A stretch of DNA of 32,000 nt from Nonlabens ponticola (GCF_003966335.1 NZ_CP034549.1:2340001-2372000), one strand, 5' to 3'. Positions 4,352-31,009 are shown, counted from the first letter of the stretch. The notes: generated by a model not told the origin, from the sequence alone. Translations and numbers: made by a program.

Positions 4352-7300
4352 TTATTCTAAAATTAATTTAAGAGTAGTTTGCTCATTTTCCTTTTGAAGG
4401 TTCAACAAATATAAACCTCTAGACAAATTTTGCAAATTTTTAAGAGTATCATTTTGATGAGAAATCTCACCTTTTCTCACTATCTGTCCCAAAGTATTCA
4501 CTAATGTGTAATTATAGGCAGATCCTTGCTCAAGATTTGCAATCCTTACCACTCCATTGCTTGCAGGATTAGGGTAAAGTGATAACGCTTTCGCGAAAGC
4601 GGAATCATCATCAAAACTTAAGGTGGAAGACTCAAATTGTAACTCAAATCTATCATCACGACTAGCTGAATCATCAGTAGTCTCAAATTGCAAAGTATTG
4701 ATATTATCAACTGATAAGGTTATCACCTCACTAGTAAAATTATCTACCAATAACACCTTGGTATTTTCAAGGCCTCGATAATCAATGGATAGCGTCAGTA
4801 CCTCATCAGTCAAACTTGAAGTGGTCAGCGCAATACTTTCTCCGTTAACTGGTAGCGCTCTGCGTTCGATAGCATATGCTCTCTCGCTCAAAGTAGTCAT
4901 GATCTGGTTTCTTGCTCCTTTTAACTTTGGAATATCAGTAAGAGAAACCTCATTTGTCTCGTTTACATCAAATATCAATGTTAGCTCATCAGCATTATCA
5001 TCACCTTGTAAACCTAAGGAAACATTGATCACGCCTTGTGGCTCGCTGTATGTAGCTGTAGTCTGCGTATCTAGTGTCTTGTCGTCTTCCTCAAATGTAA
5101 GTTGAGAATCGATGACGCCATTAAAATCTGTATCAGCACGTAATAAAAAGAATGCCTGGCCTGGTTGCACCAAAGGCGTTACAGCGCCAGTGCCACCATT
5201 AAGTAAATCTACTTCCACATAATCTTGTGTCGATGGCAAGTAATAGTAATAAACGTTAGGATTGAGATCCTGGGCTGGAGATGCCGTTCCTGTTCCTAAA
5301 ACCGTGCGCATGTCAACCTGTGCTTGATACGGGTTACCTACCAATACAAATGTTTCATCTTGACCGCCAGTTACTGATAGATCTGGAGACTGTGGTCCAG
5401 TTGCTAGTGTACCTGTGCTACTTAAGGTAGTGACAGTCGCAGATTGATTGGCAGCTGTTAGGTCAATTGTACGATCACCTCGTATCAAGACATTAAACGC
5501 ATCTCCTGCGCTAGGTGATAAACTATTTGTTGCAAGACCGTTGTCAGAGTTTATGAATGTAAATTGTTCAGCATCTCTTGCATCACGCTGTGCCTCACTT
5601 GTAGCGCCGTCATAATTGTAATCGTTATTAAACAGATATGCGCTAGGATTATTTGAACCAGACTGGTCAAAGCCGTCTGCAGTGGTACCACCTGTGATCA
5701 ATATTCCTGATTCTGCCTCAAAACCCTCATCGCCAGGAAGCAAACCACCTTGCTGCCAGTTTGAAAAGATTGTCCCATCCATATTCACCGGTGATGAGAT
5801 GAATCTAAAGGCACGATTGGCTGGATAATACTGCTCAACCGTCACGTTTCCTGAGATGGATCCGTTTACTACTGGAGCCAGTATTGCGGACGATGTCGCA
5901 TCACTCTTAAATGTGAAACTATCATTAGTGTCCAATGTACCATTTGTCAACGTTAAAACACCTTCTAGATTAATTGCCGCAGTAGCGTCAACACCTGTGG
6001 TGTTATTGATGATCAGGTTTTCTACCGTTAAGTCTGATCCTGAAAGTGTTTGCAAGGAAGACCCAGCGAAATTCAAGGTTCCTTCATTTGCAACAAGGTC
6101 TCCATTGTTGTCAAGATTACCATTGAGGTTAATGGTATTTGTTGCTATATCTAGTGTCGTACCTGACCTTGTGGTAATGTTGTTGATATCAACATCACCG
6201 CTAATCGCTGCGTTACCTGTAAGAATAACAATATTATCAGTGCTTACAGCTACACCTTCTGGAGTTTGTGGGCTCCATGCACCATTATCATAAGAAAACA
6301 CATTTGCTGTTGTGGATCCTTCAACATTTCCTGGGGTGGCGTCTGCAGCATTTGCCGTGGCGATGGTCCACTGACTAGCATTCCATACTGTTGTAGGGTT
6401 GTTTAAAAGATCTGTGCGATAGGCTCTTGCGTTTTCATATTCCCAAGCCTCGCCGCTACCATCTACTCCTATCTCACCGTAAACGTCAAATAAGGTTCCA
6501 GATCCAGGAGTGCCAGCATATAGCCCAAAGGCGTCATTACCATTTACGTTTATAATACCGCTTGTATCGTTTGCAGAAAATCCATAAGTAGATAAAAAAG
6601 ATACTTCACTTGAAGCAATTACATAATACGCACCTGCTCTCAAAACTCCATCTAGGACTACTACTTGCGAATCAGTATTACCATTGGCAAATCTTGCCAG
6701 ATAAATTGGTGTCACCTCAAAATCTATATCCTCAACGCCGTTGTTGTAGATTTCTACAAATCTGGCCGAGGCATTGTCTGCTGGATCTGCTATCTCAGAA
6801 AGAATAAGTGTAGGTGCAGGAACTGGATCCATGACCCTGTAGTCGAATGTAGCACTTGTTGATTCTAGGGACTCTGCACTATCATCTGTAGCAACAATTC
6901 TATAGTTGACGGTAGATCCATCTGCCTGTACAGGAATCGCTGCGGCATAGCTGTCACCATCTGCTGTCATGATGATCGCTTGATCAAAAAAACCATTAAA
7001 CGTATCGCCAGATGCAGTCACTGCATACTCGAGTACAACGCCGTTAGTAGCGATGCCATCTGCATCAGTAACATCTGCAGCTACTGTTACCTGTGTAGTT
7101 GAGAAAATATTAGCATTGCGTGCTGGAGATTGTAAGATGTCTGTAATGATAGGAGCCTGGTTAGACCCTGCCATACCACTAGCAGTTAATACTAAGTTGC
7201 GCAGACGCACGCCTCGCCCAACAACTCCTGCATTAGAAATTCTCACTACAACTTGTGAGGACACGTTTGATAAAACGATATCACCGCCATCTATGTAACT

Positions 7301-7669: not shown

Positions 7670-7688
7670 GCCTAAAATTATTTTTCGG

Positions 7689-7812: not shown

Positions 7813-8958
7813 CTAGCTATCAAACGTTTTTACCACTACCGCTTTTATACGTTCACGGTCGGCGTCTGTGAGGTTAGATCCTGACGGTAGGCATAGGCCT
7901 TTTTCAAATAGATCCTCGCAAGTACGGTCATCACCATAATAAGGATACTTCTCATAAAGTGGTTGCATGTGCATGGGCTTCCACAAGGGTCTGGACTCAA
8001 TATTGTCTGCTTCAAAGGCTAGCCTAAGATCTTCGCGCGTGAGGCCGCCCGTTTTTTCTGGATCTACTAGAATAGCGCTGAGCCAATGGTTTGAGAAGTA
8101 ATCGTCGTTTTGCTCTACCTGCACGGTCACTCCATCCACATTCTTGAATATATTTTGGTAAAATGTATTCATGGCGCGTCGCAATTCAATATGCTTGTCA
8201 AGAACTTGCATTTGCCCGCGACCTATGCCCGCACTTATATTGCTCATGCGATAATTAAAACCTACCTGACTGTGCTGATAATGCGGTGCCGCGTCTCTAG
8301 CTTGAGTGGCGAGAAATACCGTTCTGTCCTTGGCCTCTTTGGTATGGCATACCATCGCGCCACCACCACTGGTTGTTATGATTTTATTCCCATTAAAACT
8401 AAGGATCCCATAGTCTCCAAAGGTGCCACACTTGCGATTTTTATAAGTGCTTCCCAGCGCCTCGGCACTGTCCTCAATGACTTTTAGGTTGTTAGCTTTC
8501 GCGAAAGCGTGAACAGCATCAACTTTATAGGGCATACCGTAGAGATGGACTGCGAGCAAGGCCTTAGGAGTCTTGCCTTGCTTGACACGATCTTTATAGG
8601 CCTGCTCCAATGCGTCGGGACAAATATTCCAAGTATCAGGCTCACTATCAACCAGTATAGGCGTTGCGCCTAGGTATAAAATAGGATTAGAACTACCGCA
8701 GAAGGTGAAGCTTTGACACAGTACCTCATCGCCGGGACCAACTCCAGCCTGGATCAATGCTAAATGAATCGCTGCTGTACCACTGCTCAATGCGGCAACA
8801 TGAGTAACTTGACCTTGATATGCTTCTAGATCTTTCTCAAACCCATTGACGTTGGGACCTAAGGGCGCTACCCAATTGGTATCAAAAGCCTCATTTACAA
8901 AATCTCTCTCTGTGCCTCCCATATGTGGTGAGGACAACCATATTTTATCGTTTGACAC
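7813..8958 (-). CDS. DegT/DnrJ/EryC1/StrS-family PLP aminotransferase (PglE/WbpE-like UDP-4-keto-6-deoxy-HexNAc aminotransferase)
   Basis: 381 aa. SFNGNKIITTSGGGAM matches the PLP-lysine motif and the fold-type I pattern of sugar aminotransferases. It is adjacent to a PglD-like acetyltransferase and PglC-like transferases. Confidence 0.85.
   Translation of the reverse strand: MSNDKIWLSSPHMGGTERDFVNEAFDTNWVAPLGPNVNGFEKDLEAYQGQVTHVAALSSGTAAIHLALIQAGVGPGDEVLCQSFTFCGSSNPILYLGATPILVDSEPDTWNICPDALEQAYKDRVKQGKTPKALLAVHLYGMPYKVDAVHAFAKANNLKVIEDSAEALGSTYKNRKCGTFGDYGILSFNGNKIITTSGGGAMVCHTKEAKDRTVFLATQARDAAPHYQHSQVGFNYRMSNISAGIGRGQMQVLDKHIELRRAMNTFYQNIFKNVDGVTVQVEQNDDYFSNHWLSAILVDPEKTGGLTREDLRLAFEADNIESRPLWKPMHMQPLYEKYPYYGDDRTCEDLFEKGLCLPSGSNLTDADRERIKAVVVKTFDS
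8495..8508. repeat. Iterated palindrome copy 2: GCTTTCGCGAAAGC (14 nt)
   Basis: Exact core. It lies inside the aminotransferase gene and encodes H-AFAKA-N. Confidence 0.95.
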
Positions 8959-11962: not shown

Positions 11963-13842
11963 GAATGATTGATATTTATCGTGGTATCAAAAGCTCTACC
12001 AGTATGTGAAAAGATGATTTGAGTTGCTGGCTCCTTAACACCATAGTATGAAGAGTGCCAGCTGTTGGAATATTCAGGCTTTAGCTCTATACCATTTTCA
12101 TCTCGTGATGTTATGGTAACCCGGTTTGAAACTTTTGGATTGATGTGCCAGTGTTGCCTTACCGTTCTACCTTGAGTATTCTCTATGAAATCTTGGATAC
12201 TCCACTGTGTAGCTAGCTTCTTCTTTTTTACCGTTCTAGTCATCTTTATGCCACTTAATTGCCGGTATCCCATCATTGACGCAACTATGCCTAGTTTATT
12301 TTTATTTTCTTCAATAATAGCACTGGCCTTTTTTACCCAATAATACCATATAAAGCGACCGCCTTTGAGCATGTGGTTCTGCCTATTTATAGTCAACGTA
12401 TTATGCCCTGCACTTCCCATGAAATGTTGGAGCATTTGCTGACTTGTATTATACTTATAACTACCATTATCCCAAAGATAATTAATGCCATCTACCCAAA
12501 TATCGAGATGCAGATTATCTGCCTGTGCAGGTCGATCCTTGTAACTACCACACCTTAGAAAAGTTTTCAACTCGTTGTTTTCATTACAGATGTAATATCC
12601 TCCATCTTTAAAGCTAAACGTGCCAGAATTATCAGCTTCAATTAATTCATAATCATTGATACCGTACCACGCATAACTTTCTGAAACAGCGGTAGCCTTA
12701 CCAGTAAGCACCACTCTCAAGTCATTGAGTTGACTGGTATAAACACGATAATCATCATCAGTAAACTTGAAGAATAAAGCCCCATCATTACTACCGTAGT
12801 TAGGTAGTTTCCCTGATTTATGATCTATACAAGCATCTAAGAAAGCAAGGGATCTAGAAGCTCTTTGATATACCACGTCCTTAAAGCGTTCTTGATTCAA
12901 ATTTGCCAGACGTATAGCCCAAGTCAATAGTTGAACCACTACTCTATGATAATTCATGGAGTATTGAAGGAAGGTACCATCTTCATAAATTTGATATTCA
13001 ATCTCTTGCTCAAACCATTTTTTACCTGACTTACTCCATTGTTTTGTCTCTGGAATGAATGGAAATAAGAGTCCAGAGAGATAGAGCATCAGCGTTTCTG
13101 TAATCGCATGATTATTGCGCACGGCAATCCTGCTGAAGTTGATATTCTTCCTGACGTGGTGCAATTGCCAGTAGATAGAATTCATGAGCTTCAAAAATCT
13201 ATCTTCTGTAAGTGCTTTGCTGTTTTTGTAATAAAACAATGCATAAGTCCAGTTGAGCACTCGCAAACTGATTTCCTGGCTGCATTTGTATTGAGGCCCG
13301 AGGTTGATAGGATTTTTATCAATAAAATCCTCAATCTCTTTAAACACAAATTCTGCTTGATCTGTGTCACTGTGGTAATCGTATCTAATGATATCGTACA
13401 GGTAAGAGAACCGTGCTTTTTCCCAGACAAATTTTATATCTCCAGCTTCGGCCGACAAATCTGCGATCTTTGACCAATGCTGTTTTGAATCATACAAATA
13501 ATCATTGCTGGGATTTACCTTCCATTGAGTTTCTTTGTCTAGTTGAAATTTTTGACTATTAAAAAAAGTGATGTTGTTTTTTACGCTTTCGCGAAAGCGT
13601 AACTCCAAATCATCATTGAGCTGCTTGGGTAAGTCTAATTCTTCCCTAGAAGAGATCAGGAAAGGGATATTTGCTGATCGCCACTGCTCTAAAGTCACAA
13701 ACTTTCTAAATTCTGGATGCGCAGGAAATTTCTTTTGAAACAATCCTGACTTGACCTGAAAAAGATGCCACAGTCTGAAGAAGACATAGCGCCAGCCCAT
13801 GTTCTTTACAAAATCAACAACGAGAAGTGCTTTATTGAACAT
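11959..13842 (-). CDS. Heparinase II/III-like (alginate-lyase-fold) protein embedded in the biosynthetic operon
   Basis: 627 aa. The C-terminal region contains GSAGHNTLTINRQN, which resembles the heparinase II/III family signature. The N-terminal half appears helical (toroid-like). I see no obvious signal peptide at the N-terminus (MFNKALLVVDFVKNMGWRYVFFRLWHLF). Confidence 0.65.
   Translation of the reverse strand: MFNKALLVVDFVKNMGWRYVFFRLWHLFQVKSGLFQKKFPAHPEFRKFVTLEQWRSANIPFLISSREELDLPKQLNDDLELRFRESVKNNITFFNSQKFQLDKETQWKVNPSNDYLYDSKQHWSKIADLSAEAGDIKFVWEKARFSYLYDIIRYDYHSDTDQAEFVFKEIEDFIDKNPINLGPQYKCSQEISLRVLNWTYALFYYKNSKALTEDRFLKLMNSIYWQLHHVRKNINFSRIAVRNNHAITETLMLYLSGLLFPFIPETKQWSKSGKKWFEQEIEYQIYEDGTFLQYSMNYHRVVVQLLTWAIRLANLNQERFKDVVYQRASRSLAFLDACIDHKSGKLPNYGSNDGALFFKFTDDDYRVYTSQLNDLRVVLTGKATAVSESYAWYGINDYELIEADNSGTFSFKDGGYYICNENNELKTFLRCGSYKDRPAQADNLHLDIWVDGINYLWDNGSYKYNTSQQMLQHFMGSAGHNTLTINRQNHMLKGGRFIWYYWVKKASAIIEENKNKLGIVASMMGYRQLSGIKMTRTVKKKKLATQWSIQDFIENTQGRTVRQHWHINPKVSNRVTITSRDENGIELKPEYSNSWHSSYYGVKEPATQIIFSHTGRAFDTTININHS
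13581..13602. repeat. Iterated palindrome copy 3: TTACGCTTTCGCGAAAGCGTAA (22-nt perfect palindrome; core at 13585-13598)
   Basis: Exact core with 4 further palindromic nt on each side. It lies inside the heparinase-like gene in a different codon phase, encoding LRFRES. Confidence 0.95.
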
Positions 13843-19370: not shown

Positions 19371-19423
19371 AGAAGAGTTCTGTAAGCGAACAGAAACCTA
19401 TTATTTACAGGCTGCGAAGGTAA

Positions 19424-19431: not shown

Positions 19432-19550
19432 GGTGATAAATACCCGGCTACTTAGTTATGATACATCAGGAGACTACGCTAGCCTCGCCACATTAAAACA
19501 TTTCAATGAAGATCTTTAAGACTACAACATTACTACTACTGGTCGCCAAA

Positions 19551-20651: not shown

Positions 20652-21586
20652 TTCTCGTCAGTGAATTTATTCTCAACTAGAATTTCCTTTATCAAAGAGC
20701 TAACCTTTTGAGCACCTTGTTGTGATAAATGGTCATCGTCAAAGAAGTCTGCCTTGTCGTCAAGTAAAAGCATTTGATCCATATCGTAATAGTACTGATG
20801 CATTTGCATAAGTTCATCGTACTCTTTGGGAACTAGATTCCTCTCCTTTAAAATGTTTGTAACAGGCGTTTTTACTAAAACTAGCTCAATTCCTTTTAAT
20901 CTTATCAGTTTGACATTTTCCATGAATGCTTTTAACTGATCCGGACGAATATTATACTTACTTTCTTGAAAGGAGTTTCCATCGAATTGCTCTACCGCTC
21001 GTTCTACATAACCACCTTTTATATAAGTGTCCTTATCATTCAAAGCTACTTCCTCAAACTTATCTTTTACTCCAGAAAGCTCGTTGATCAGGCTGTATAG
21101 CATGGTATTATAAACGGTTGCATTATTTATATCTACTGCCATCTCAAACATTTCAACATTGAAATGATCGTTAGAGATAATATCCAACGCAGATTCTACC
21201 CCATCCAAATCAAAAATGCGAGGGTACACCTCGTAAACAATTACCGAAGGATTTAAATTATCTAAATATCTTTCTAAGATATACTTTGTTTGAATATGAG
21301 TTTGACCACTCGAACCGAAATTAAAAGCGCTCAATCCATTCTGTTCAAAAATCCTTGTATCAAAAGTTCGATAAGAGTGAGAGCTACCTAAAAATAAAAT
21401 ATCAATATTTTGAAATTGCTTTGAGTCCTTAATTCTAGTGTTCATGAATCCGTAGGATCCTTGTTCAAAAGATAAATTACCTCTAAGCTTTTTATGAGGT
21501 ATATGAACCCAAACACAAAGCATTATTGTATAAATGATACTTGCGATAACGGTATACACAATTAAATTAAGTAGAAATTTCTTCAT
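20648..21586 (-). CDS. Membrane-anchored DltD/AlgX-like (SGNH-like) partner of the MBOAT acyltransferase
   Basis: 312 aa. An N-terminal TM anchor is followed by the DILFLGSSHSYRTFD block. It lies immediately downstream of the MBOAT gene with a 1-nt overlap. Confidence 0.5.
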   Translation of the reverse strand: MKKFLLNLIVYTVIASIIYTIMLCVWVHIPHKKLRGNLSFEQGSYGFMNTRIKDSKQFQNIDILFLGSSHSYRTFDTRIFEQNGLSAFNFGSSGQTHIQTKYILERYLDNLNPSVIVYEVYPRIFDLDGVESALDIISNDHFNVEMFEMAVDINNATVYNTMLYSLINELSGVKDKFEEVALNDKDTYIKGGYVERAVEQFDGNSFQESKYNIRPDQLKAFMENVKLIRLKGIELVLVKTPVTNILKERNLVPKEYDELMQMHQYYYDMDQMLLLDDKADFFDDDHLSQQGAQKVSSLIKEILVENKFTDEK

Positions 21587-23031
21587 TAAAATTGAAAATA
21601 TATAAAGGTTGACTCATTTGTATACATGTACATACCTATCAAAAAAATCAGAATAGAATAGCATGTCCACCGTAAAGCTCTTGACCGCTCTGAGAGAATA
21701 AAATTTAAAGCTAAATCACTACTTCTACCTTTCCATTCTACGATAATCATTATAAGTACCATCACAGTGATCTTACCTAAATCACGTCTTGAAATCAAAT
21801 TAGGCAGGGCAAAATCCCAATTCCCATAGATGCTTTGCAAAAAATAAAATGACTGAGCCATCGACTGTGATCTGAAAAATAAGAAGGTAAATGCAAAAAG
21901 AAGAAATACTCCTATGATTTTGTGCAAGTCTCTGTATCCTGGTAACCGCGCTTGCTCTTCTTTAATCTTTTCTCTAGTTGATGAGATAAGGATTCCAGGT
22001 GCCATTAATATAGCATTTACTAGACCCCAAAAAACAAAAGTCCATGCAGCTCCATGCCATAAGCCGCTTATTAAAAAAACAATGAATACGTTTGAAAGTG
22101 TTCGCCATTTTCCATTACGGCTACCGCCTAAAGGAATAAATACGTAATCACGAAACCACGTACTCAGCGAGATATGCCACCTGTTCCACACCTCACCTAT
22201 ACTGCGAGAGAAAAAGGGATATCTAAAATTAGTCATTAAGTCAAAACCAAATAGCTTTGCCGTACCTATAGCGATATCTGAATAAGCGCTAAAATCACAA
22301 TAAATTTGAATAGTGAATAATAAAATGCCTACGATTAGCGACATACTATTCATTTGCTGATAATTATCAAAAACTTGACCGACTATTACAGCACTGTTGT
22401 CGGCAATAACCATTTTTTTGAAAAAACCCCACAATATTTGCTGCATTCCAGCAACCGCTGTTTGATAAGAAAACTGTCTTTGACTACTGAACTGTGGTAG
22501 AAATCTCGAGGCTCTTTCAATAGGGCCAGCTACAAGCTGCGGGAAAAAACTTATGTAAGCACAAAAACTCAATAGATTTTTTTCAGGTTTAATATGCCCA
22601 CGGTATATGTCAATGGCATAACCCATCGTCTGAAACGTGTAGAAGCTGATTCCTACTGGTAGGATGATGTTGATTGCACTAAATTTTGAAGATGCATAAT
22701 TCAGGGAAAAGGCATCGTAAAAACTCTCTATGAAAAAATTAGCATATTTGAAATATGCCAAAAGTCCAAGATTGAAGAATAAACTTATCGCAAGTAAGAA
22801 TTTTTTTCTTGAAATGTTATCTGTTTTGAAAATTGCAATACCCAATGAAAAATCAAGCAGAGTACTAAACATGATCAAGAATAAAAATTCTGGATTCCAC
22901 CAACCATAGAATATATAACTAGCTGCAAGAAGTATGAGATTTTGATAATGAATACGGCTACCGCCGACACTCCAATAAGCAGCAAAACTTATTACCAAAA
23001 GCACTAGAAACTCTATCGAATTAAATAACAT
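21586..23031 (-). CDS. MBOAT-family polysaccharide O-acyltransferase (AlgI/DltB-like)
   Basis: 481 aa and polytopic. The block WNRWHISLSTWFRDYVFIPLGGSR contains the invariant MBOAT histidine. Confidence 0.85.
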   Translation of the reverse strand: MLFNSIEFLVLLVISFAAYWSVGGSRIHYQNLILLAASYIFYGWWNPEFLFLIMFSTLLDFSLGIAIFKTDNISRKKFLLAISLFFNLGLLAYFKYANFFIESFYDAFSLNYASSKFSAINIILPVGISFYTFQTMGYAIDIYRGHIKPEKNLLSFCAYISFFPQLVAGPIERASRFLPQFSSQRQFSYQTAVAGMQQILWGFFKKMVIADNSAVIVGQVFDNYQQMNSMSLIVGILLFTIQIYCDFSAYSDIAIGTAKLFGFDLMTNFRYPFFSRSIGEVWNRWHISLSTWFRDYVFIPLGGSRNGKWRTLSNVFIVFLISGLWHGAAWTFVFWGLVNAILMAPGILISSTREKIKEEQARLPGYRDLHKIIGVFLLFAFTFLFFRSQSMAQSFYFLQSIYGNWDFALPNLISRRDLGKITVMVLIMIIVEWKGRSSDLALNFILSERSRALRWTCYSILIFLIGMYMYTNESTFIYFQF

Positions 23032-23039
23032 ATCTTAGA

Positions 23040-24512
23040 TCAACCGCCTTTTTTAATTTGATAAAGTCGATATAAAGTGAATAAAGGATAAGCTGCCAAA
23101 ACTAGAAATGCTAGAACACTTAAAACAAAGTGCTGCGAGGTGAAGGTTTGCATTTCAAACATAAAGAAAGAGTAAATACTTATACCTATAACTAGGTACA
23201 AGCCTGCATTTGAAAAGCTAAAATAGTCAATACGCAAAGTCGAAGAAAGTCTATTAAAAACCACCAAAGTACCAGTAAGTAAAAGCACACCGTTTAACGG
23301 TATAATAAATTTAAGACCTTCTACTCCAAAGGAATAGATTAAATAATAAGTCAGTACTCCACACAATAGCTGACCAAAAGTCCAAGCAATATATAACTGA
23401 GAACTTACACCCATCGAGACACAATATTTACGATAAACCTGATTTATACCACTTATAGCTATAGCAAAAGAATTGAATCCTAAAAATATAAACGCAAGAT
23501 TAAGGTCTGAATCTGAAAATTTTGATCCACCCCATATTATATCTAGCGTCCAATATCCGAATAGTACGATGTATAGAATCGTGAGTGTAGAGATACTTAA
23601 AATACTACGGAGACACTTTTCAAAAATCTTACTTACTGGCCGTCTATTAGCAATCTGGTCGCTAATATCTGTGAAGAATATTGTTATAAATGGTTGTACA
23701 ACAAGGCCTTGAGCCTTTTTTGCAAGATTCTGAACATGTTTAAATACTGCATAAGTACCATCAGGCAGGAATGAAGTCCCAGCAGTTAATACAAAGATGT
23801 AACCTTGCGTTGAGACTGTATAAAGCAGTGTAGATTTTAAGGCATTAAGAAAATGTCTTGAGTCAAACGCATCCATCGCTTTGATGATTTGCGGTCTATA
23901 ACCTAAATCAAACAAGTTTTTCAAGTAAAAAGCGGTTTGTAGGACTTTAGCTATGATTAGTGATAAAACAAGACTCCAAATACCCAGCAGCTCATAAAAA
24001 AGAAATAGTATTAAAATATTAAGACCACTATTTACCGCACTCAAAAATTCTGCCCTCCCGAATTTTCTTTCGCCATTGAGTACAACAACAAAAAAGTTAC
24101 CCGCAATCTCCAAGACGATCAAAGGGACCAAGACCCTAAAAACATCTACCGCTGTTTCTCTATCCGCATCACTAAAACCTGGTATGAGCAACTCTATTAT
24201 GTATGGGGCCAGTATGAATGCGATAACTATGAAAAATGCTCCAAAGAATAATATTTTAGTAAGCACGTAGTTCAATGCATCAAAATGAAGCTGTCCACTT
24301 AAAAGTTTGAGCTTGTGATAAACAGGAAGAAAAACTTCGGCCAATTGGCCAGTCTGTGTTAAAGAAGTTATTACATAAACTAAACTTTGAGCAGCAAAGA
24401 AAATTTCTATACTTCTACTTGATCCAAAATAATACACCTGTAGAATCGAATAGCCTATCCCCAAAAGAGCAGATAGAAACTTAAAAGAAAATAATCGTAG
24501 TATTATCTTCAT
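23040..24512 (-). CDS. wzx: MOP-superfamily flippase (MurJ/MviN-like, in the Wzx role)
   Basis: 490 aa with roughly 12-14 TM helices. The N-terminal pattern LGIGYSILQVYYFGSSRSIEIFFAAQSL...AEVFLPVY parallels the MurJ N-terminus. Confidence 0.6.
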   Translation of the reverse strand: MKIILRLFSFKFLSALLGIGYSILQVYYFGSSRSIEIFFAAQSLVYVITSLTQTGQLAEVFLPVYHKLKLLSGQLHFDALNYVLTKILFFGAFFIVIAFILAPYIIELLIPGFSDADRETAVDVFRVLVPLIVLEIAGNFFVVVLNGERKFGRAEFLSAVNSGLNILILFLFYELLGIWSLVLSLIIAKVLQTAFYLKNLFDLGYRPQIIKAMDAFDSRHFLNALKSTLLYTVSTQGYIFVLTAGTSFLPDGTYAVFKHVQNLAKKAQGLVVQPFITIFFTDISDQIANRRPVSKIFEKCLRSILSISTLTILYIVLFGYWTLDIIWGGSKFSDSDLNLAFIFLGFNSFAIAISGINQVYRKYCVSMGVSSQLYIAWTFGQLLCGVLTYYLIYSFGVEGLKFIIPLNGVLLLTGTLVVFNRLSSTLRIDYFSFSNAGLYLVIGISIYSFFMFEMQTFTSQHFVLSVLAFLVLAAYPLFTLYRLYQIKKGG

Positions 24513-24515
24513 TTT

Positions 24516-25589
24516 TTATCTAAAAACCCAATCATACACTTTTTCATAAGCATCCTTCAATACCGTACGCTCTAATTTGATATCGCTCTCTGTTTTTTCT
24601 AGTTCTTGTAAACGACTAATACAAGCATAATAATCTTCAACAGAAGCTTCAGGCTCAATTATAAGAGGTTTCTTATAAAAAAGTTGAGAGGCAAATGTCA
24701 GTTTTTGATGGACATTAATGGCAATAAAAGGAGCACCAACAATGCCTGCAACATATATACTGTGCATCCTACTGGAAATAACGGCGTGTGATTGCTCAAA
24801 AAAGCCTATAAAATCATTAATACCCATAGACTCTGGGTCCCATACTATCAACTTGTCGCTTTCTGGAACAAACCCATAAATATCTGCTTTTTCTTCTTGC
24901 AGGAACAACCATTTGACCTCGTGCCCATCTCCATTCAAGCGTTGAGACAACTCTCTTAAATTCACTAGATGTTTCTCGTATTTTTCTTCATGCTTATAGC
25001 TGCGTGGACAAAATATGAATGACTTCTTGTCCATTTGATTCTTACTGTCTAATGAAGCATGTTGTTCTAGCAGTAAACTTAAATCGTTGGTCAATAATGG
25101 GTCAACAGCTGCTATTTCTCGCACTAATTTGACCGACGTTCTATCTCGCACGCCCAGGATATCAAAATTATCAAGTATATCCCCATGAATCTTTTTTGCC
25201 CTATGCGAGTGATAAGGACCTACACCTATACCTAATCCCGCAAAACGAGTTCCAGACATTCTAGCAAAATTGAAGCGTAACTTATTGGACAACTTATTTT
25301 TTAAATACACCTTTAGACTAATTTCTTCCCTGTAGTCGAAGAATATACCACCGCCAATAAAAAACACCTTATCAAATTGCTTGTAAAAAAATAAAGGAAT
25401 ATTTCCAGAGTATCTATGTATGGTAGCAGCTGGTAAAAAGATGTCTAGATAAGCATCGCCCGATGAAGAAGTGCTAATAACATGCAAATCAACACCATCA
25501 AGTTTGAGCATTTGCTCATAAGCAATGTAAAGAAGCAGGTCATCCCCAAAATTCTTATGACCAATATATCCCGTAAGTAATAATTTCAC
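24516..25589 (-). CDS. Polysaccharide pyruvyl transferase family protein (CsaB/WcaK-like)
   Basis: 357 aa. The N-terminal LLLTGYIGHKNFGDDLLL and the C-terminal ISSRMHSIYVAGIVGAPFIAI are typical of the PS_pyruv_trans family. Confidence 0.7.
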   Translation of the reverse strand: MKLLLTGYIGHKNFGDDLLLYIAYEQMLKLDGVDLHVISTSSSGDAYLDIFLPAATIHRYSGNIPLFFYKQFDKVFFIGGGIFFDYREEISLKVYLKNKLSNKLRFNFARMSGTRFAGLGIGVGPYHSHRAKKIHGDILDNFDILGVRDRTSVKLVREIAAVDPLLTNDLSLLLEQHASLDSKNQMDKKSFIFCPRSYKHEEKYEKHLVNLRELSQRLNGDGHEVKWLFLQEEKADIYGFVPESDKLIVWDPESMGINDFIGFFEQSHAVISSRMHSIYVAGIVGAPFIAINVHQKLTFASQLFYKKPLIIEPEASVEDYYACISRLQELEKTESDIKLERTVLKDAYEKVYDWVFR

Positions 25590-25606
25590 CCTTGCCAGTA
25601 TTCAAG

Positions 25607-26857
25607 TTAATTAGTAATCCATTTTTTTAGCTGATGGCTAAATGTCATTTCTCTTTTTGAAATTAGCTCTTGAAATTCATTCGGGTTAGGCCCTGGAAAA
25701 TGTAGAGTACGATCTAGAGTCAGAACGTATTCTGATAGATGGTATGTTTTACAAAATTCGTCAAAACCTAAGTATTTTCCTTCATCCAAAACTAATTGTA
25801 TTATAGGTTTATCCACAAGACTAGCCTCTAGAGCAAACGTTGTTCCAGCATTAATGACTGTATGAACAGTATTGAGAAGAGCATATCTAAACATATGATA
25901 CTCTTCATCAAGCATATCAGATGCATTAGGACTACTGGAGTCTATCCCAACAATAACATTTGGGTGTTTTTCAAATATGGCGTAGTCTCCACTTGGAGCA
26001 TTAGGCTTTGGTTTAATATATAATTGATAGGAACTATTAATTAAAATTTCTGCTAACTCTTCAATCAGCTTCATTTCACCTTCATGATTCAAACCAGCAG
26101 ATGATGTTGTTGAAGGGTAAAGTACGATTTTCTTGTCTCTTAATTTGCTTAATTCACTACTATAAGCCTTGTTACTTATCGTACTAATTATCATATCAAC
26201 ATTCATGTCACTGTACTTATTGATATAATGAAACTTTAGAGGCTCAATCTTTCTAACTCTATCAATACTCTGCACTCTACGTGTTTCATTAGCTAGGTCC
26301 GTATTCCACGTGAGATTAAAACTAGGTTTTAAATAATACGGGAACTTCATAGGATGATCCCAGCTTTCCATAATACTGATATGCGGCAAAGTATCTGGTG
26401 ATGGTATCAGGTGTGAATAATACACTTTGGTAAAACTGATCAATAAATCCAGGTGAAAGTGACTGTTGATATTTTTTGAACCAAATAATAATTTGTTACA
26501 CCTGACAAATAGACGATTTACTTTTTCTCCAGATAACTTTAGAAAAAAAAGTTTCCTAACCAGGCTTTCCCATTTGCTATCTCTACCAACATGGTAATTC
26601 TTATAGACATATGAAAAATCAACAGGAACTAGCGCCAATTCAAAAAACTTTTTAAACAACACAGCAGGCTTATAAACAAAAGGTTCAATCGCTTGAACCT
26701 TTAAATTGCTTACATTAAACCTCAGTCTTATCTCCGCTACATTCTGCTTTTTGGTGAATAAAATTACTTTATTCTTTGGAGTGTATTTCTCAATCAAGGG
26801 TATCGCACTATATACCTGAAAATTGTGTTCACACCATATTCCTATCGTACGACTCAT
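25607..26857 (-). CDS. Uncharacterised 416-aa protein. Candidate nonulosonic-acid transferase or other GT-B-like enzyme.
   Basis: The ORF track starts it at 26887. The ATG at 26857 forms an ATGA overlap with the neuA stop. It contains ESWDHP and a C-terminal VINAGTTFALEASLVDKPIIQL, which looks like a GT-B nucleotide-binding region. No family was recognised by eye. Confidence 0.6.
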   Translation of the reverse strand: MSRTIGIWCEHNFQVYSAIPLIEKYTPKNKVILFTKKQNVAEIRLRFNVSNLKVQAIEPFVYKPAVLFKKFFELALVPVDFSYVYKNYHVGRDSKWESLVRKLFFLKLSGEKVNRLFVRCNKLLFGSKNINSHFHLDLLISFTKVYYSHLIPSPDTLPHISIMESWDHPMKFPYYLKPSFNLTWNTDLANETRRVQSIDRVRKIEPLKFHYINKYSDMNVDMIISTISNKAYSSELSKLRDKKIVLYPSTTSSAGLNHEGEMKLIEELAEILINSSYQLYIKPKPNAPSGDYAIFEKHPNVIVGIDSSSPNASDMLDEEYHMFRYALLNTVHTVINAGTTFALEASLVDKPIIQLVLDEGKYLGFDEFCKTYHLSEYVLTLDRTLHFPGPNPNEFQELISKREMTFSHQLKKWITN

Positions 26858-27543
26858 TGAACCAGCATATTTTCCGCCACTTTCCAATCCTTCATGGTAT
26901 CAAGATTAACCTCTAATTCAAATTTGTTTTCTACGTAAGCTATACTTTGACCGAAGAGAGATTTCTGTTCTAAAATCACGCTTACCTTAGTTAAGTAAAC
27001 AGAGCCATCACGGTAAAATGCCTCTGGTAACTCTTGCCTACGGGTTATTAAATGCTTATCACCCGTTGCAATTTTTAAATTCCCTTGTATGTTCCTTTCA
27101 AATGTCCAGTGTGGATTGAAGTGATCAGGAACTTTCCGTACACTTACGAGACTATCAGCGTTTGAGTTTTTAAACTGCTCAACAGCTTTTGAAACCTCTT
27201 TAAGATCTCTAAATGGTGTCGTGCACTGTAATAAACAAATAGCGTCATAGCTTTCTCTGGCAATCATCTCATTTTGAAGGAGGTCTACAAGAACGTCGAT
27301 TGTGGGTGCTGTGTCATTCGCGAGCTCTTTCCTGCGCAAAAAAGGTACCTTTGCTCCATATTCGCTTGCGACAGCAGCTATTTCATCATCTTCTGTACTT
27401 ACGATAATATCGTCGAATAATTGAGATTCGAGGGCTACATCGATGGAATATGCTATCAAAGGTTTACTACCTAACATTTTTATGTTCTTGCGTGGTATGC
27501 CCTTAGAACCACCTCTAGCTGGTATGACCGCGAGAATCTTCAT
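26854..27543 (-). CDS. neuA: Acylneuraminate (nonulosonate) cytidylyltransferase
   Basis: 229 aa. The N-terminus MKILAVIPARGGSKGIPRKNI is the CTP_transf_3 / CMP-NeuAc synthetase signature. Confidence 0.9.
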   Translation of the reverse strand: MKILAVIPARGGSKGIPRKNIKMLGSKPLIAYSIDVALESQLFDDIIVSTEDDEIAAVASEYGAKVPFLRRKELANDTAPTIDVLVDLLQNEMIARESYDAICLLQCTTPFRDLKEVSKAVEQFKNSNADSLVSVRKVPDHFNPHWTFERNIQGNLKIATGDKHLITRRQELPEAFYRDGSVYLTKVSVILEQKSLFGQSIAYVENKFELEVNLDTMKDWKVAENMLVQ

Positions 27544-28697
27544 TAATACACCAGCGTTTTATGAAACCTCAATGGTAGATCTGCTAGTAGATTTGCAATC
27601 TTCAAGCCGCTATTACCACCGCCATAAACATTAGAAGAGCCAGGTCTTTCCTGAACAGCGATTTTTTCAAGGGCAGATACAATTTCTTCTTTATTATAAT
27701 CAGCGTCAATAACATTGTTACCACGTTCCCTGCGATTTTGTCGTGTACCAATATTTACCACAGGAACACCTAGAAAGGCGCATTCTCTTATCCCAACGCT
27801 GCTATTTCCAATAAGAGCGTTGCAATTATTTAGGAGTTTTAGAAAATCGTGTGGCTCCATATTTTTAAAGAAATGGAATCTTTGAGCAGGAAATTTCTCT
27901 CTAAAGGATCGAATACCTTTGGATGTCCCATCAGAACCAGCATCTACATTAGGCCAAAACCATAAAACTGGTTTTTCAGTCTCTTGCATAGCATAGAGCG
28001 TTTCTTCTATTTGCTTTCGCGAAAGCGCATACTCAGAAGATACTGGGTGCTGCATCACGACATAGTACCCGTTATCTAGATCTTGGATCTCTCCTACTCC
28101 ACCATACTTGGCAAAAGGATCAAAGTCAAGTTTACCATCGTCCTTTACATCAATAGCAAGATCAATAGATGGACATCCTGTATTATGAACCATTGATGCT
28201 TCTTCTCCTAGTTTTATGACTCTTTCTCGTGCACCATCAGAAGCTACGAAGTGATAATCTGCAAGTTTTGTGATAGCGTGTCTAACTTTCTCATCGATAT
28301 TTCCAGTCACCTCACCACCTTGTATATGTGCTAGTGGAATATTCATATAACTCGCAGCAATTGCCGTGGCCATGGTTTCATAACGGTCTGCTATGGTGAC
28401 CACAACATCGGGCTGTAAGTTTTCGAAAACGGTTGAAAGTTCTAGAATACCTATCCCTGTAGTTTTTGCCGCCGCAGTTAAGTTTTGTCCTTCAAGGACA
28501 TTGAATACTTTGGCAGTAATGGTAAATCCATCACTCTCAATATTCTTTATGGCATTACCATATCTATCCAACAAAGCAGAGGCTGCAACGACTAGTTGCA
28601 ATTCTAGATTAGGATGGTCAACTATTGCCTGTAACGCTGTTTTAATACGACTGTAGGATGGTCTTGCCGTTACTACAACACAAATTTTTCTTTTCAT
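27543..28697 (-). CDS. neuC: UDP-HexNAc 2-epimerase, hydrolysing type (NeuC/LegG family)
   Basis: MKRKICVVVTARPSYSRIK... resembles NeuC-type epimerases. The ATG at 28697 forms an ATGA overlap with the neuB stop, whereas the track start at 28733 adds 12 unlikely residues. Confidence 0.85.
   Translation of the reverse strand: MKRKICVVVTARPSYSRIKTALQAIVDHPNLELQLVVAASALLDRYGNAIKNIESDGFTITAKVFNVLEGQNLTAAAKTTGIGILELSTVFENLQPDVVVTIADRYETMATAIAASYMNIPLAHIQGGEVTGNIDEKVRHAITKLADYHFVASDGARERVIKLGEEASMVHNTGCPSIDLAIDVKDDGKLDFDPFAKYGGVGEIQDLDNGYYVVMQHPVSSEYALSRKQIEETLYAMQETEKPVLWFWPNVDAGSDGTSKGIRSFREKFPAQRFHFFKNMEPHDFLKLLNNCNALIGNSSVGIRECAFLGVPVVNIGTRQNRRERGNNVIDADYNKEEIVSALEKIAVQERPGSSNVYGGGNSGLKIANLLADLPLRFHKTLVY
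28013..28026. repeat. Iterated palindrome copy 4: GCTTTCGCGAAAGC (14 nt)
   Basis: Exact core. It lies inside neuC in the third codon phase, encoding ALSRKQ. Confidence 0.95.
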
Positions 28698-29794: not shown

Positions 29795-31009
29795 TTACTT
29801 TACGACACCTGCAAAATCAAGCACCACCTTGTCAGCATCTTTAGGTAAATCGTAAAATTCTTTATGTGCTACTAGGTAGACTATAATGTCCGCTTTCGCG
29901 AAAGCGGTATTATAATCAGTCAATTTAAACACCTTATGATCTTCAATATTAGGCTCAACGATATAGTATTCCTCATCGTTTGAATCTTGAAGAACTTTTT
30001 GTGCAATGTACTTAGCTGGAGACTCTCTAAGATCATCAATATTGGGTTTGAATGCAAGCCCCATTAAAGCAATTTTAGGTAATCTACCATGGTCTAGTCT
30101 AAATTGTAATTTAGCATTCTTTACCTGCTCTGCACACCAGAATGATTTGTAATTATTGATTTCTCTAGCCTTACCAATAATCTGTGATTCCATCGGGAAA
30201 TCAGCAACTATAAAATACGGGTCGACGGCAATACAATGACCACCTACACCACAACCCGGTTGTAAGATATTGACTCGTGGATGCTTATTGGCAAGTTTGA
30301 TTAGTTCCCAGACGTTGATATCAGCTTTGGCGCAGATCAACGATAGTTCATTAGCAAACGCTATTTGAACGTCTCTAGAGCTATTCTCAACAAGTTTACA
30401 CATCTCTGCAGTGCGAGCGTTAGTAGCATGCAGTTCACCATTGACATGTTGTTTGTAAAATTGCAATGCCGCTTGTGTACTTTTCTCATTGACACCACCT
30501 ATCACTCGATCGTTATTGACCAGCTCATGCATGACGTTACCAGGCAGCACACGCTCTGGACAATATGCTATATTTACTTTGCCCTCAAGCTCTGGTCGCT
30601 CATTGTAAATGAGTTCCATCATCTTCTCCGTTGTACCAATAGGTGATGTTGATTCTATAATATAAAGATCACCATCCTTAAGTAGAGGAATTATGCCACG
30701 TGTTGCTGCCTCGACAAAGGAAATGTCCGGTTCATTTTTATCCTTAAAGGGTGTAGGGACAACAATTAAGTAGGTATTTGCTTTTACTGCCTGAGTAGCT
30801 GCTTTCAAGTAACCGTCACTCACGGCCGCCGCAACTGCAGTACCTAGGTCTGGCTCAACAATATGAATCTCTCCTCTATTGATTATTTCAACAACCTCTG
30901 GATTGATATCGACCCCATGCACATAGACCTGGTTAGAGGCTATTAAGGCTGCTGTAGGCAGACCGATGTAACCCAAACCTATCATCACTACTTCTGGTTC
31001 TTTACTCAC
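29795..31009 (-). CDS. wecC: UDP-N-acetyl-D-mannosamine dehydrogenase (nucleotide-sugar dehydrogenase, WecC/Cap5O type)
   Basis: 404 aa. It contains the MIGLGYIGLPTAALIA Rossmann motif and the catalytic-Cys region GCGVGGHCIAVDP, and lies near wecB. The start is either the GTG at 31009 or the ATG at 30985. Confidence 0.8.
   Translation of the reverse strand: MSKEPEVVMIGLGYIGLPTAALIASNQVYVHGVDINPEVVEIINRGEIHIVEPDLGTAVAAAVSDGYLKAATQAVKANTYLIVVPTPFKDKNEPDISFVEAATRGIIPLLKDGDLYIIESTSPIGTTEKMMELIYNERPELEGKVNIAYCPERVLPGNVMHELVNNDRVIGGVNEKSTQAALQFYKQHVNGELHATNARTAEMCKLVENSSRDVQIAFANELSLICAKADINVWELIKLANKHPRVNILQPGCGVGGHCIAVDPYFIVADFPMESQIIGKAREINNYKSFWCAEQVKNAKLQFRLDHGRLPKIALMGLAFKPNIDDLRESPAKYIAQKVLQDSNDEEYYIVEPNIEDHKVFKLTDYNTAFAKADIIVYLVAHKEFYDLPKDADKVVLDFAGVVK
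29890..29907. repeat. Iterated palindrome copy 5: CCGCTTTCGCGAAAGCGG (18-nt perfect palindrome; core at 29892-29905)
   Basis: Exact core. It lies inside wecC and encodes T-AFAKA-D. Confidence 0.95.

Follow-up and report, generated by a model that had tools for sequence, protein, structure and literature searches.

Introduction

To our knowledge, only two families of hyper-abundant genomic words have been well studied, the uptake sequences (USS of Pasteurellaceae and DUS of Neisseriaceae) and the HIP1 palindrome of cyanobacteria. The role of HIP1 is still debated after 30 years. USS and DUS are asymmetric words of 9-12 nt, present at about 1 per kb in hosts of proven competence, and the receptor is known (ComP, a minor pilin, for DUS). 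HIP1 proper is an octamer, GCGATCGC or closely similar, that is methylated by orphan methyltransferases. Its function, long unknown, has now been linked to transformation (PMC5861425; bioRxiv 10.1101/2024.09.10.611283): HIP1 sites enhance natural transformation, and roles in uptake or processing as well as a Chi-like role have been proposed (bioRxiv 10.1101/2024.09.10.611283; 10.64898/2026.06.24.733823). Within the Flavobacteriaceae, Riemerella is naturally competent and R. columbina prefers its own DNA, with no DUS identified there (PMC7965970); Riemerella is the only member of the family known to be competent.

Here we describe an iterated palindrome in a capsule/O-antigen locus of Nonlabens ponticola. 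The window, that is, the whole stretch of 32,000 nt analysed, carries five copies. The motif is a previously undescribed relative of the DNA-uptake sequences and of HIP1, the two systems that an earlier note on this DNA had rightly named as its closest analogues; a literature search for the motif found no paper.

Results

Five copies within the capsule locus

The core GCTTTCGCGAAAGC was found in five exact copies starting at 4587, 8495, 13585, 28013 and 29892, and nowhere else in the window, just as the earlier note had reported. The copies and the longest stretch between them are as follows.

4586..4601, in the minus-strand CDS 4352-7669 (LTD and T9SS sorting domains): copy 1, 16-nt perfect palindrome cGCTTTCGCGAAAGCg, phase 0, A-F-A-K-A
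8495..8508, in the minus-strand CDS 7813-8958 (DegT/DnrJ/EryC1 aminotransferase): copy 2, 14-nt core, phase 0, A-F-A-K-A
13581..13602, in the minus-strand CDS 11959-13842 (heparinase II/III-like): copy 3, 22-nt perfect palindrome ttacGCTTTCGCGAAAGCgtaa, phase 1, R-F-R-E-S
13599..28012: motif-free stretch of 14.4 kb, a region defined post hoc
28013..28026, in the minus-strand CDS 27543-28733 (UDP-GlcNAc 2-epimerase, NeuC-like): copy 4, 14-nt core, phase 2, A-L-S-R-K-Q
29890..29907, in the minus-strand CDS 29795-31009 (UDP-sugar dehydrogenase, WecC-like): copy 5, 18-nt perfect palindrome ccGCTTTCGCGAAAGCgg, phase 0, A-F-A-K-A

The extents of the palindrome at copies 1, 3 and 5 (16, 22 and 18 nt) agree with those first given, and Pfam assignment bears out five different host genes, all on the minus strand, in which the core is read in three codon phases, as AFAKA three times, as RFRES once and as (A)LSRK(Q) once. 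Shuffled sequence yielded 0.00 copies, in agreement with the claim that five copies do not arise by chance. No variant of GCTTTCGCGAAAGC with one or two mismatches was detected within the window, and every occurrence of TTCGCGAA in the window falls within a copy of the motif. The G observed immediately 3' of the core on the plus strand is indeed present, and is better read as the coding-strand C 5' of the core, representing half of a 16-bp dyad. Copy 1 lies immediately ahead of the Por_Secre_tail domain, and the exact motif is present at this site also in N. xiamenensis (L323:9513), as it is at the site orthologous to copy 3 in N. spongiae (L324:3715). For copy 4, a two-mismatch variant, GCTTcCGCaAAAGCaaata, was detected near the expected place, by position and not by formal alignment of orthologues, in a related metagenome contig (L239).

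Most of the motif-free stretch, from about 16 to 27 kb, is lower in GC (0.34-0.36) and corresponds to the serotype-variable centre of the polysaccharide locus, including genes for glycosyltransferases, Wzy, MBOAT, flippase and pyruvyl transferase. The variable upstream parts of loci L321 and L322 likewise lack the motif. Absence from the low-GC variable centre as a USS-like feature is suggestive only, the region having been defined post hoc.

Distribution in the lineage and in phages

That the motif characterises the Nonlabens/Dokdonia lineage of marine flavobacteria, at about 1 copy per 7 kb or a few hundred per genome, is well supported. Most matches in a genome scan came from Dokdonia and Nonlabens, where an 8-kb block contained 1-3 copies, while matches in other taxa were almost always single; a zero-truncated Poisson fit gave 1 copy per 6.7 kb. 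An unbiased sample from four other Nonlabens species, for which loci were picked via a CapD homologue and not via the motif, contained 12 copies in 87.6 kb. In 1.03 Mb from other marine Flavobacteriia neither the motif nor any other iterated palindrome was found. The enrichment is thus not confined to the window, since loci that were not selected by the motif carry it at about 1 per 7 kb and the other Flavobacteriia not at all. Markov models of order 1-4 predicted 0.0003-0.0014 copies in 665 kb, against about 143 observed, and the enrichment is about 10^5-fold. The sampled sites are distributed across complete chromosomes. In this the motif resembles USS and DUS: the word is short, vastly enriched in a single lineage and scarce outside it.

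The lytic Nonlabens phages P12024S (35.7 kb) and P12024L (35.0 of 35.65 kb scanned) contained no copy and not even a two-mismatch relative of the motif. At host density the probability of finding none is 0.005 for one 35.7-kb genome, the two phages being closely related and not independent. Copies with flanks of the Dokdonia/Nonlabens type do occur in some phage- or prophage-like contigs, at 3 per 11-12 kb, roughly the host density.

The unit is a sharp symmetric dyad

A unit of 14 nt had been proposed at the outset. The real unit is longer, a dyad of 16-20 bp, CGCTTTCGCGAAAGCG, with the consensus T-T-[A/C]-C-GCTTTCGCGAAAGC-G-[T/G]-A-A, and 90-93% of the intergenic copies carry the full 16-mer. 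A total of 133 exact copies was detected against 13 one-mismatch variants, the latter having the same flanks as the exact copies. None of the 17 two-mismatch variants keeps the palindrome, indicating that recognition is base-specific and not structural. Half-sites alone occur at background frequency (ratios 0.97-1.7) and are not enriched. Outside the motif, both TCGCGA and CGCG occur at about the expected frequency, and for TCGCGA nothing therefore points to restriction avoidance.

Gene context, reading frame and spacing

The statement that no copy is intergenic holds within the window but not across the lineage, where 41 of 134 assignable sites were intergenic by crude ORF calls. By the same crude calls, copies in intergenic DNA are about 2.6-fold commoner than expected; among the gene-called Nonlabens loci together with the window, 1 of 17 sites was intergenic. 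The intragenic share is about 70% or more, and one reading frame is favoured (53:21:20). The use of three phases, together with the intergenic occurrence, agrees with the earlier view that no peptide is being conserved. The copies avoid each other: only 3 pairs closer than 1.5 kb were detected against 20.5 expected, and the smallest spacing was 856 bp.

Origin and maintenance of the copies

It is well supported that the copies were made in place by point substitution from chance proto-sites, within genes, whatever the frame, as well as in spacers. For the WecC site, the exact motif is present in the two closest orthologues (L239, L240), and all 76 of the more distant aligned orthologues carry a GCTGTTGAAAAAGC-like sequence, encoding A-[VAI]-[EQD]-K-A, without any indel. 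The conversion of GCTGTTGAAAAAGC to GCTTTCGCGAAAGC takes 4 base changes, 2 of them nonsynonymous, and turns A-V-E-K-A into A-F-A-K-A, again with no indel. The same pattern of substitution without indel was observed for the pair L110/L071.

That copies, once made, stay letter-perfect over long periods is likewise well supported. Orthologous sites are identical in 5 of 5 Nonlabens species for DegT, 4 of 4 for the class-III aminotransferase, 2 of 2 for the LTD protein and 2 of 3 for the heparinase-like protein, and all 14 nt are retained in locus pairs with 71-84% identity in the flanks. The synonymous positions within the motif are all frozen over five species while the adjacent codons vary, in support of the proposal that conservation acts at the DNA level. 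Origin by point mutation, conservation of position between species and even spacing are thus found here as they are for USS and DUS.

Composition of the flanks

Base composition is skewed over about 30 nt on each side of the core, in a strand-symmetric manner: 5' of the core C is depleted and G and T are in excess, and 3' of it G is depleted and A and C are in excess. The frequency of C in the flank is 0.09-0.13 against 0.19. All three codon positions show the skew, and so do the flanks of intergenic copies and the unbiased sample (P<2e-4). An example in the window is the following, and the flanks of the other four copies are skewed likewise.

4556..4631, either strand: footprint of about 75 bp (core +/- 30 nt) around copy 1

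We know of no strand-symmetric flank skew described for HIP1.

Discussion

By analogy with USS, DUS and HIP1, we tentatively favour, with less than even confidence, the reading that the dyad may mark DNA as self and may function in its uptake or recombination. A base-specific protein, symmetric and probably a homodimer, would recognise the word in duplex form, and the word would act during natural transformation, at DNA uptake and/or when the DNA is recombined. Alleles bearing it would be preferentially taken up or recombined and would spread by molecular drive and selection wherever coding constraint permits, one copy per kilobase-scale fragment being sufficient. On this reading the skew fits two strands ending 3' at the word that would form a recurring single-stranded recombination substrate. 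It could have arisen by selection, as RecA favours GT-rich single-stranded DNA, or as a deamination footprint on exposed single-stranded DNA (C>T, A>G). Even spacing, frame preference, the intergenic excess (by crude ORF calls) and absence from both lytic phages are features shared with USS. USS and DUS, as known from general background and PMC7965970, also resemble the motif in being specific to a genus or family, extremely enriched and scarce in foreign DNA, in arising by point mutation in coding DNA at a cost in amino acids, in preferring certain frames, and in their intergenic excess, more-even-than-random spacing and conservation of position between species. USS, by contrast, is accompanied by AT-tracts, where the motif has a skew in flank composition. 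HIP1 is likewise a lineage-wide, hyper-abundant perfect palindrome. It, too, occurs within genes in every frame as well as in spacers, is more conserved at orthologous sites than codons or peptide would require, is spaced non-randomly and is not carried on a mobile element. It differs, however, in sequence and phylum, in length (8 bp against 14-16 bp or more here), in density, which is roughly an order of magnitude higher (up to >1 per gene against about 1 per 7 kb), and in enrichment (15-300-fold against about 10^5-fold); the motif described here is much sharper, with few one-mismatch relatives, and is restricted to two genera.

Several observations speak against the uptake reading. Known uptake sequences are non-palindromic, shorter and about 5-7 times denser. 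The skew extends over only about 30 nt while recombination tails are far longer, so that the footprint of a protein explains this length at least as well. The copies in phage- or prophage-like contigs are not specifically predicted, unless these elements are long-term residents of the chromosome, and the intergenic excess depends on the crude ORF calls, with only 1 of 17 sites intergenic in the gene-called sample. Besides, sites bound by a chromosome-organising protein would be expected just as much to be evenly spaced, conserved and missing from lytic phages. No paper linking Nonlabens or Dokdonia to natural transformation was found in the literature.

A binding site of this kind, read by a lineage-specific protein for chromosome organisation or maintenance that binds as a symmetric dimer in the manner of Noc (NBS), SlmA (SBS) or the readers of matS and parS, is an alternative that we regard as rather unlikely. 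The perfect dyad with half-sites not enriched alone, the even spacing, the strict conservation at orthologous positions, the spread of sampled sites along complete chromosomes and the lack of copies in lytic phages are all in agreement with it, and the skew of about 75 bp could mark the region covered by the complex, or that in which polymerases stall on meeting it. The same role was proposed for HIP1 by Xu et al. (PMC5861425). The sites parS, NBS, SBS and matS are also dimer-read dyads of 12-16 bp scattered within genes, and NBS and parS contain TTTC...GAAA as well. They are, however, degenerate, confined to chromosome domains and present in tens of copies, against several hundred near-identical 16-mers here; the TTTC and GAAA blocks of parS and NBS (16-bp dyads, few to tens of copies, TTTC-N4-GAAA in the published consensus) are 4 bp apart against 2 bp here (TTTC-GC-GAAA), indicating a geometry unlike that of the ParB/Noc family. 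Neither is the host-like density in phage- or prophage-like contigs predicted, and the nonsynonymous building of sites at conserved residues would imply an unusually strong benefit per site. A Chi-like self tag, recognised in the processing of double-strand breaks so as to halt degradation and/or load RecA, appears quite improbable, though it is compatible with the uptake model. At about 1 per 7 kb the motif is similar in density to Chi in E. coli (about 1 per 4.5 kb), lytic phages lack the motif, and on both strands the 5' flank is G/T-rich, this being the strand that would survive as a 3' tail; the self character is indeed shared with Chi, as is the association with a strand rich in G and T whose 3' end lies at the site. 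Being palindromic, such a tag would work from either direction. For HIP1, too, a Chi-like role has been proposed (bioRxiv 10.1101/2024.09.10.611283). Known Chi sites are, in contrast, asymmetric words of 5-8 nt, orientation-biased, only few-fold over-represented and read as single-stranded DNA by RecC/AddB within RecBCD/AddAB, while an enrichment of about 10^5-fold for a 16-bp word is on another scale, and a dyad allows no orientation; no repulsion between Chi copies is known, and the skew fades past 30 nt.

Less probable again is a functionless by-product of a bias in sequence-specific repair, methylation or gene conversion, for instance through a system resembling Vsr or linked to a methyltransferase, which would act around TCGCGA/CGCG and repeatedly turn near-matches into the perfect word. 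The motif contains both words, its copies are built by substitution, the one-mismatch copies share the flanks of the exact ones, and the abundance of HIP1 tracks orphan methyltransferases (PMC4390886). Methyltransferases and Vsr enzymes read 4-8 bp, however, and no repair bias is known to specify as many as 16 bp; outside the motif TCGCGA and CGCG are not over-represented, a near-match bias gives no repulsion between copies and leaves unexplained the lack of two-mismatch relatives in lytic phages of these hosts, and the long-term conservation of position argues for selection or drive acting on fixed sites, not for continual replenishment. A miniature mobile or inserted element (REP/RAYT, MITE or RPE type) or an RNA or terminator hairpin is effectively refuted by the lack of shared flanks, the absence of an indel relative to motif-less orthologues and the position of only 3 of 41 intergenic copies between convergent genes. 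The earlier note had already judged the copies unlike REP/MITE insertions, terminators or a recent segmental duplication, and segmental duplication is rejected here as well. Copies are many, and the palindrome could fold as single-stranded DNA (-4.3 kcal/mol for the 16-mer and -7.3 kcal/mol for the 22-mer), but the flanks are not complementary either, no compensatory stem variants were found, and a search of Rfam gave no match. REP/BIME elements, which are associated with RAYT, are strictly extragenic and imperfect, 20-40 nt long with a conserved 5' tetranucleotide and often clustered, whereas about 70% or more of the present copies lie within CDSs, have a perfect core and are never closer than 856 bp. 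Palindromic insertions of the MITE or Rickettsia type, with terminal inverted repeats, target-site duplication and a shared interior, are ruled out by unrelated flanks and by the lack of a length difference from the 76 WecC orthologues or from L071. An intrinsic terminator, a GC-rich hairpin with a T-run at the 3' end of a gene, is ruled out by the A-rich 3' flank, in which no T-run follows, and by the scarcity of sites between convergent genes.

Returning to the uptake and recombination signal, a more specific form is possible but doubtful, in which the dyad would be the first sequence-specific signal of this kind in Bacteroidota. A dimeric receptor or nuclease would open or cut the DNA at the dyad. 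Both strands with their 3' ends there would then invade, and the flanks would be the footprint of repeated single-strandedness or RecA loading. The skew around the core represents a novel type of observation, and could report on molecular events at such sites.

The motif is a third, independent hyper-abundant genomic word, present in ecologically important marine Flavobacteriaceae. The signal is unusually clean, being 16 bp long, letter-perfect and limited to two cultivable genera, and the sharp on/off contrast with neighbouring genera should allow the protein that recognises the word to be found through phyletic profiling. If the motif is an uptake or recombination signal, it would reveal species-selective transformation in a phylum without any such known signal, would suggest a practical handle for genetics in which the dyad is added to constructs, and would test whether palindromic words such as HIP1 act alike. 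If the more specific form is true, the dyad would be direct genomic evidence of species-selective natural transformation among abundant marine flavobacteria.

The word within the polysaccharide locus

The 14-mer GCTTTCGCGAAAGC has exactly five exact matches in the window, as the earlier note had claimed, and dinucleotide-preserving shuffles of the window gave no copies. No variants with one or two mismatches were detected in the window, and every occurrence there of the octamer TTCGCGAA lies inside one of the five copies. The window is a capsule/O-antigen locus, encoding Wza, CapD, DegT, sugar transferases, glycosyltransferases, Wzy, MBOAT, flippase, pyruvyl transferase, CMP-sugar synthetase, NeuC, NeuB and WecC, and an Rfam search of it gave no match. 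All five copies are located within coding sequences on the minus strand.

Copies of the word in the window: start, host gene (Pfam assignment) and extended palindrome
4587, minus-strand CDS, LTD and Por_Secre_tail; palindrome 4586-4601, 16 nt
8495, minus-strand CDS, DegT
13585, minus-strand CDS, heparinase II/III; palindrome 13581-13602, 22 nt
28013, minus-strand CDS, Epimerase_2 (NeuC-like)
29892, minus-strand CDS, UDP-sugar dehydrogenase (WecC-like); palindrome 29890-29907, 18 nt

The palindrome lengths agree with those given in the earlier note, and so do the labels of the five host genes and the translations in three phases, AFAKA in phase 0 (three copies), RFRES in phase 1 and (A)LSRK(Q) in phase 2.

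Distribution and enrichment

When representative genomes from 185,579 species were scanned, at least 120 eight-kb blocks contained the motif, 83 of those listed being derived from Dokdonia, Nonlabens or other low-GC Flavobacteriaceae. Among the matches listed, full-length blocks of this group carried one, two and three copies in 29, 28 and 10 cases, respectively, and the 25 full-length blocks from unrelated taxa carried a single copy each. A zero-truncated Poisson fit to the matches listed gave a density of one copy per 6.7 kb in these blocks, which were chosen for containing the motif. Since such blocks are a selected sample, two samples were drawn independently of the motif. Among 80 metagenome loci (1.07 Mb) picked by WecC homology, the motif was present in only the two closest (88% and 83% identity; 3 and 2 copies), and the other 78 loci, 1,030,918 bp from other Flavobacteriia, contained neither the motif nor alternative repeated GC-containing palindromes ("dialects"). 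The second sample, N. marinus, N. agnitus, N. xiamenensis and N. spongiae, reached via CapD homologues of 55-72% identity, contained 12 copies in 87.6 kb across the four Nonlabens genomes, or one per 7.3 kb.

The same DNA, its copies masked, served to train Markov models of order 1-4. These predicted 0.0003-0.0014 copies in 665 kb as against about 143 present, an enrichment of about 10^5. The excess over chance that the earlier note had asserted for the window thus extends beyond it in Nonlabens and Dokdonia, and motif positions sampled on complete chromosomes were scattered. The motif characterises the lineage and is no peculiarity of this locus.

Copies with Dokdonia/Nonlabens-type flanks were also found, at the density of those genera, in stretches labelled 'uncultured Aquimarina sp.' (L071 and L110, with one copy common to both at an orthologous site) and 'uncultured bacterium' (L002 and L047). 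Either these bins bear wrong labels, or the lineage that has the motif reaches beyond Dokdonia and Nonlabens. Leeuwenhoekiella, Altibacter and Flavobacterium sp. LPB0248 gave single copies each. Two blocks about 110 kb apart on one Bryobacterales MAG contig (L005 and L022) have in common a 1.4-kb stretch of 99.9% identity that includes the 14-mer, which is a duplicated segment in an unrelated genome.

Anatomy of the dyad

Among the copies listed, 95 of 133 extend to the 16-mer CGCTTTCGCGAAAGCG; for the intergenic copies, the flanking C is present in 37 of 41 and the flanking G in 38 of 41. T predominates at positions -3 and -4, and A at their mirror images. Exact copies number 133 among the matches listed, and inexact ones 13 (one mismatch), 14 (two) and 17 (three). 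The one-mismatch copies represent decayed or nascent words, because their flanks are the same as those of exact copies. Half-site binding was rejected, as GAAAGC, CGAAAG and CGAAAGC occur outside the motif at background frequency (0.97-1.7 times expectation), and restriction avoidance or enrichment was rejected on the near-expected frequency of TCGCGA and CGCG outside the motif. Dyad symmetry was kept in none of 17 two-mismatch variants. As lone half-sites are not enriched and symmetric double variants are absent, the unit is the whole dyad, recognised base by base, a pattern that points to recognition of duplex DNA by a symmetric dimer and away from a hairpin with a covarying stem. The 16-mer as single-stranded DNA folds at only -4.3 kcal/mol.

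An intergenic copy on a related metagenome contig (L240:14528-14563) reaches a perfect palindrome of 22 nt, TTTCGCTTTCGCGAAAGCGAAA. Its neighbours are a homologue of the 705-aa oxidoreductase encoded in the window and a heparinase-like gene of distant relationship, and its position differs from that of the window copy at 13585.

Gain by substitution and maintenance at fixed sites

Of the WecC orthologues aligned, the 76 that lack the motif all have GCT-GTT-GAA-AAA-GC or similar (A-V/A/I-E/Q/D-K-A) at the site, and the three that bear it have GCT-TTC-GCG-AAA-GC (A-F-A-K-A). The gain took four base changes and no indels; two of the changes are nonsynonymous, at an E that is fairly conserved. Comparison of L110 with L071 revealed a second gain or loss, likewise indel-free. 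The word is made by substitution.

The motif is exact at the DegT site in five Nonlabens species, at a class-III aminotransferase site in four of four, at the LTD site in two of two and at the heparinase-like site in two of three. At orthologous sites all synonymous positions within the word are frozen and the adjoining codons differ, and locus pairs with 71-84% flank identity keep all 14 nt, as against a neutral expectation of about 1-9%. The word is maintained at fixed sites, at the level of DNA. With three reading phases in use and frozen synonymous positions beside drifting codons, the proposal that conservation acts on the DNA and not on a peptide was upheld.

Two different genomes (L091:6957 and L324:21448) offer an example of a conserved intergenic site: in each, a copy precedes the start of the same SIS-domain (MurQ/GKRP-like) gene by 27-28 nt. 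In Nonlabens dokdonensis (L010:6188) and Dokdonia pacifica (L058:6091), a copy precedes one and the same small conserved gene (MN.R...EERFQNET.RPI...), at 126 and 38 nt, respectively. The spacers do not align; the copy may have been gained independently in the two, or retained while the spacer around it turned over.

Spacing and genomic context

Only 3 of 54 within-block neighbour distances were below 1.5 kb, as against 20.5 expected (0 of 5000 simulations as extreme), and the smallest spacing was 856 bp as against an expected median minimum of 43 bp. The copies repel each other.

Crude ORF calls place 93 sites in coding sequence and 41 in intergenic DNA, about 12% of the sequence being non-coding; among the 17 sites with proper gene calls (CapD loci and the window), 1 is intergenic. 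The intergenic excess is thus suggestive rather than secure. The earlier statement that no copy is intergenic holds for the window (five of five in coding sequences) and fails for the lineage as a whole. Within genes, phase 0 is favoured (53:21:20). An autoregulated binding protein encoded just downstream of intergenic copies was rejected as a candidate, the genes there being assorted housekeeping genes with no recurrent DNA-binding family.

Of the motif-free stretches in the window, the longest is 13599-28012 (14.4 kb). Most of it falls on the serotype-variable centre of the locus (about 16-27 kb), which has a lower GC content (0.34-0.36) and encodes glycosyltransferases, Wzy, MBOAT, flippase and three ORFs without Pfam match. 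The loci of N. marinus (L321 1-8900) and N. agnitus (L322 1-7800) are likewise free of copies in their variable upstream parts. Pooled, these regions, defined post hoc, hold no copies in about 31 kb as against about 4.5 expected.

Composition of the flanks

In the 30 nt 5' of the core, on either strand, C is reduced (0.09-0.14 vs 0.19), T is raised (0.36-0.40 vs 0.31) and G is enriched; the 3' flank is the mirror image, G-poor and A/C-rich, and the skew is gone by about 35 nt. It is observed at all three codon positions, with shifted amino-acid usage, and also around intergenic copies, and was replicated in the unbiased Nonlabens (CapD) sample (C 0.128 vs 0.191; 0 of 5000 random placements as low). 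At the WecC site, the motif-bearing orthologues (three related sequences) have less upstream C than the rest (2.3 vs 4.4) and more downstream A, the direction expected if the skew arose with the motif. The skewed flanks showed no special dinucleotide signature, and chance 14-mers in unrelated phages showed no flank skew. A longer hairpin or MITE was rejected: left and right flanks of one copy are no more complementary than shuffled partners or composition predicts, and together with the indel-free gains at WecC and between L110 and L071 this bears out the earlier view that the copies are not MITEs.

Deamination of single-stranded DNA produces C>T and A>G changes. One possible reading is that the skew reflects the strand whose 3' end lies at the dyad, provided that this strand is frequently single-stranded and deaminated, or is under selection for RecA loading; another is that it could be the footprint of a protein complex of about 75 bp. 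The skew matches both readings.

Phages and prophage-like contigs

The viral collection returned 118 stretches, mostly single chance matches in GC-rich phages. Several low-GC viral contigs carry copies with Dokdonia/Nonlabens-type flanks, about three per 11-12 kb.

Low-GC viral contigs with three such copies each
L209, 12 kb, IMG/VR contig, phage/prophage-like, encoding HNH nuclease, portal, protease, major head and tail proteins
L173, 11 kb, IMG/VR, virus region called in an isolate genome

These copies lie within the HNH endonuclease, head protease and other structural genes, and a search for cultured relatives of the motif-bearing contigs gave only distant matches. The two cultured lytic Nonlabens phages, P12024S (L319; 35.7 kb) and P12024L (L320; 35.0 of 35.65 kb scanned), contain no copies and nothing closer than three mismatches; zero copies in one 35.7-kb phage genome has a probability of 0.005 at host density, the two phages being closely related and not independent. 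From its presence in phage or prophage-like contigs and absence from these lytic phages, the word seems to accumulate in chromosome-resident DNA, not in everything that replicates in these cells.

Neither lytic phage has any TCGCGA in 35 kb, and the genes of P12024L for a 2OG-Fe dioxygenase, a glucosyltransferase and a methyltransferase suggest modified DNA bases. Some of the L209 and L173 sites are common to the related contigs L234, L237, L206, L156, L200, L160 and L174. In about 16 GC-rich (0.65) viral contigs (L121, L130, L133, L137, L139, L146, L161, L170, L177, L186, L189, L193, L203, L207, L222 and L232), the 14-mer lies inside one conserved gene (gcaggtatgtcacttgccacgacgGCTTTCGCGAAAGCcgcgatcggctcg). 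These copies represent one and the same homologous occurrence within a phage family, lack the flank skew and are unrelated to the flavobacterial phenomenon.

Interpretation

The word is a lineage-specific, hyper-abundant dyad, and belongs with the uptake sequences of Pasteurellaceae (USS) and Neisseriaceae (DUS) and the cyanobacterial highly iterated palindrome HIP1 as a hyper-abundant genomic word. Its whole set of properties in enrichment, origin, conservation and spacing matches USS/DUS point for point, and HIP1 shows a subset; the word differs in length, perfect dyad symmetry, sharpness, phylum and flank skew. The literature searched yielded no paper with the word, with an iterated palindrome or uptake sequence in Nonlabens or Dokdonia, or with relevant work on natural transformation in Nonlabens.

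Readings as a mobile element, an RNA or a terminator are effectively excluded. A mobile element is at odds with the indel-free gains and with the scarcity of close pairs; an RNA hairpin, with the lack of symmetric double variants and the weak fold of the 16-mer; and a terminator, with the location of only 3 of 41 intergenic copies between convergent genes. The binding site of a chromosome-organising protein is a possible but rather unlikely reading. A purely Chi-like tag appears improbable, and we regard a functionless repair or methylation drive as quite improbable.

We tentatively rank first an uptake or recombination self-signal, by its likeness to the DNA uptake sequences and HIP1 and by the occurrence of competence in the family. 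HIP1 was recently tied to natural transformation, with uptake or processing and a Chi-like effect as the proposed routes (bioRxiv 10.1101/2024.09.10.611283; 10.64898/2026.06.24.733823). Riemerella, of the same family, is naturally competent, and R. columbina prefers its own DNA, with no uptake sequence found in Riemerella with k of 10 or less (PMC7965970). We infer that the word is recognised as duplex DNA by a putative symmetric, base-specific protein, that one copy per kb-scale stretch would suffice, and that in these bacteria the word may mark 'self' DNA.
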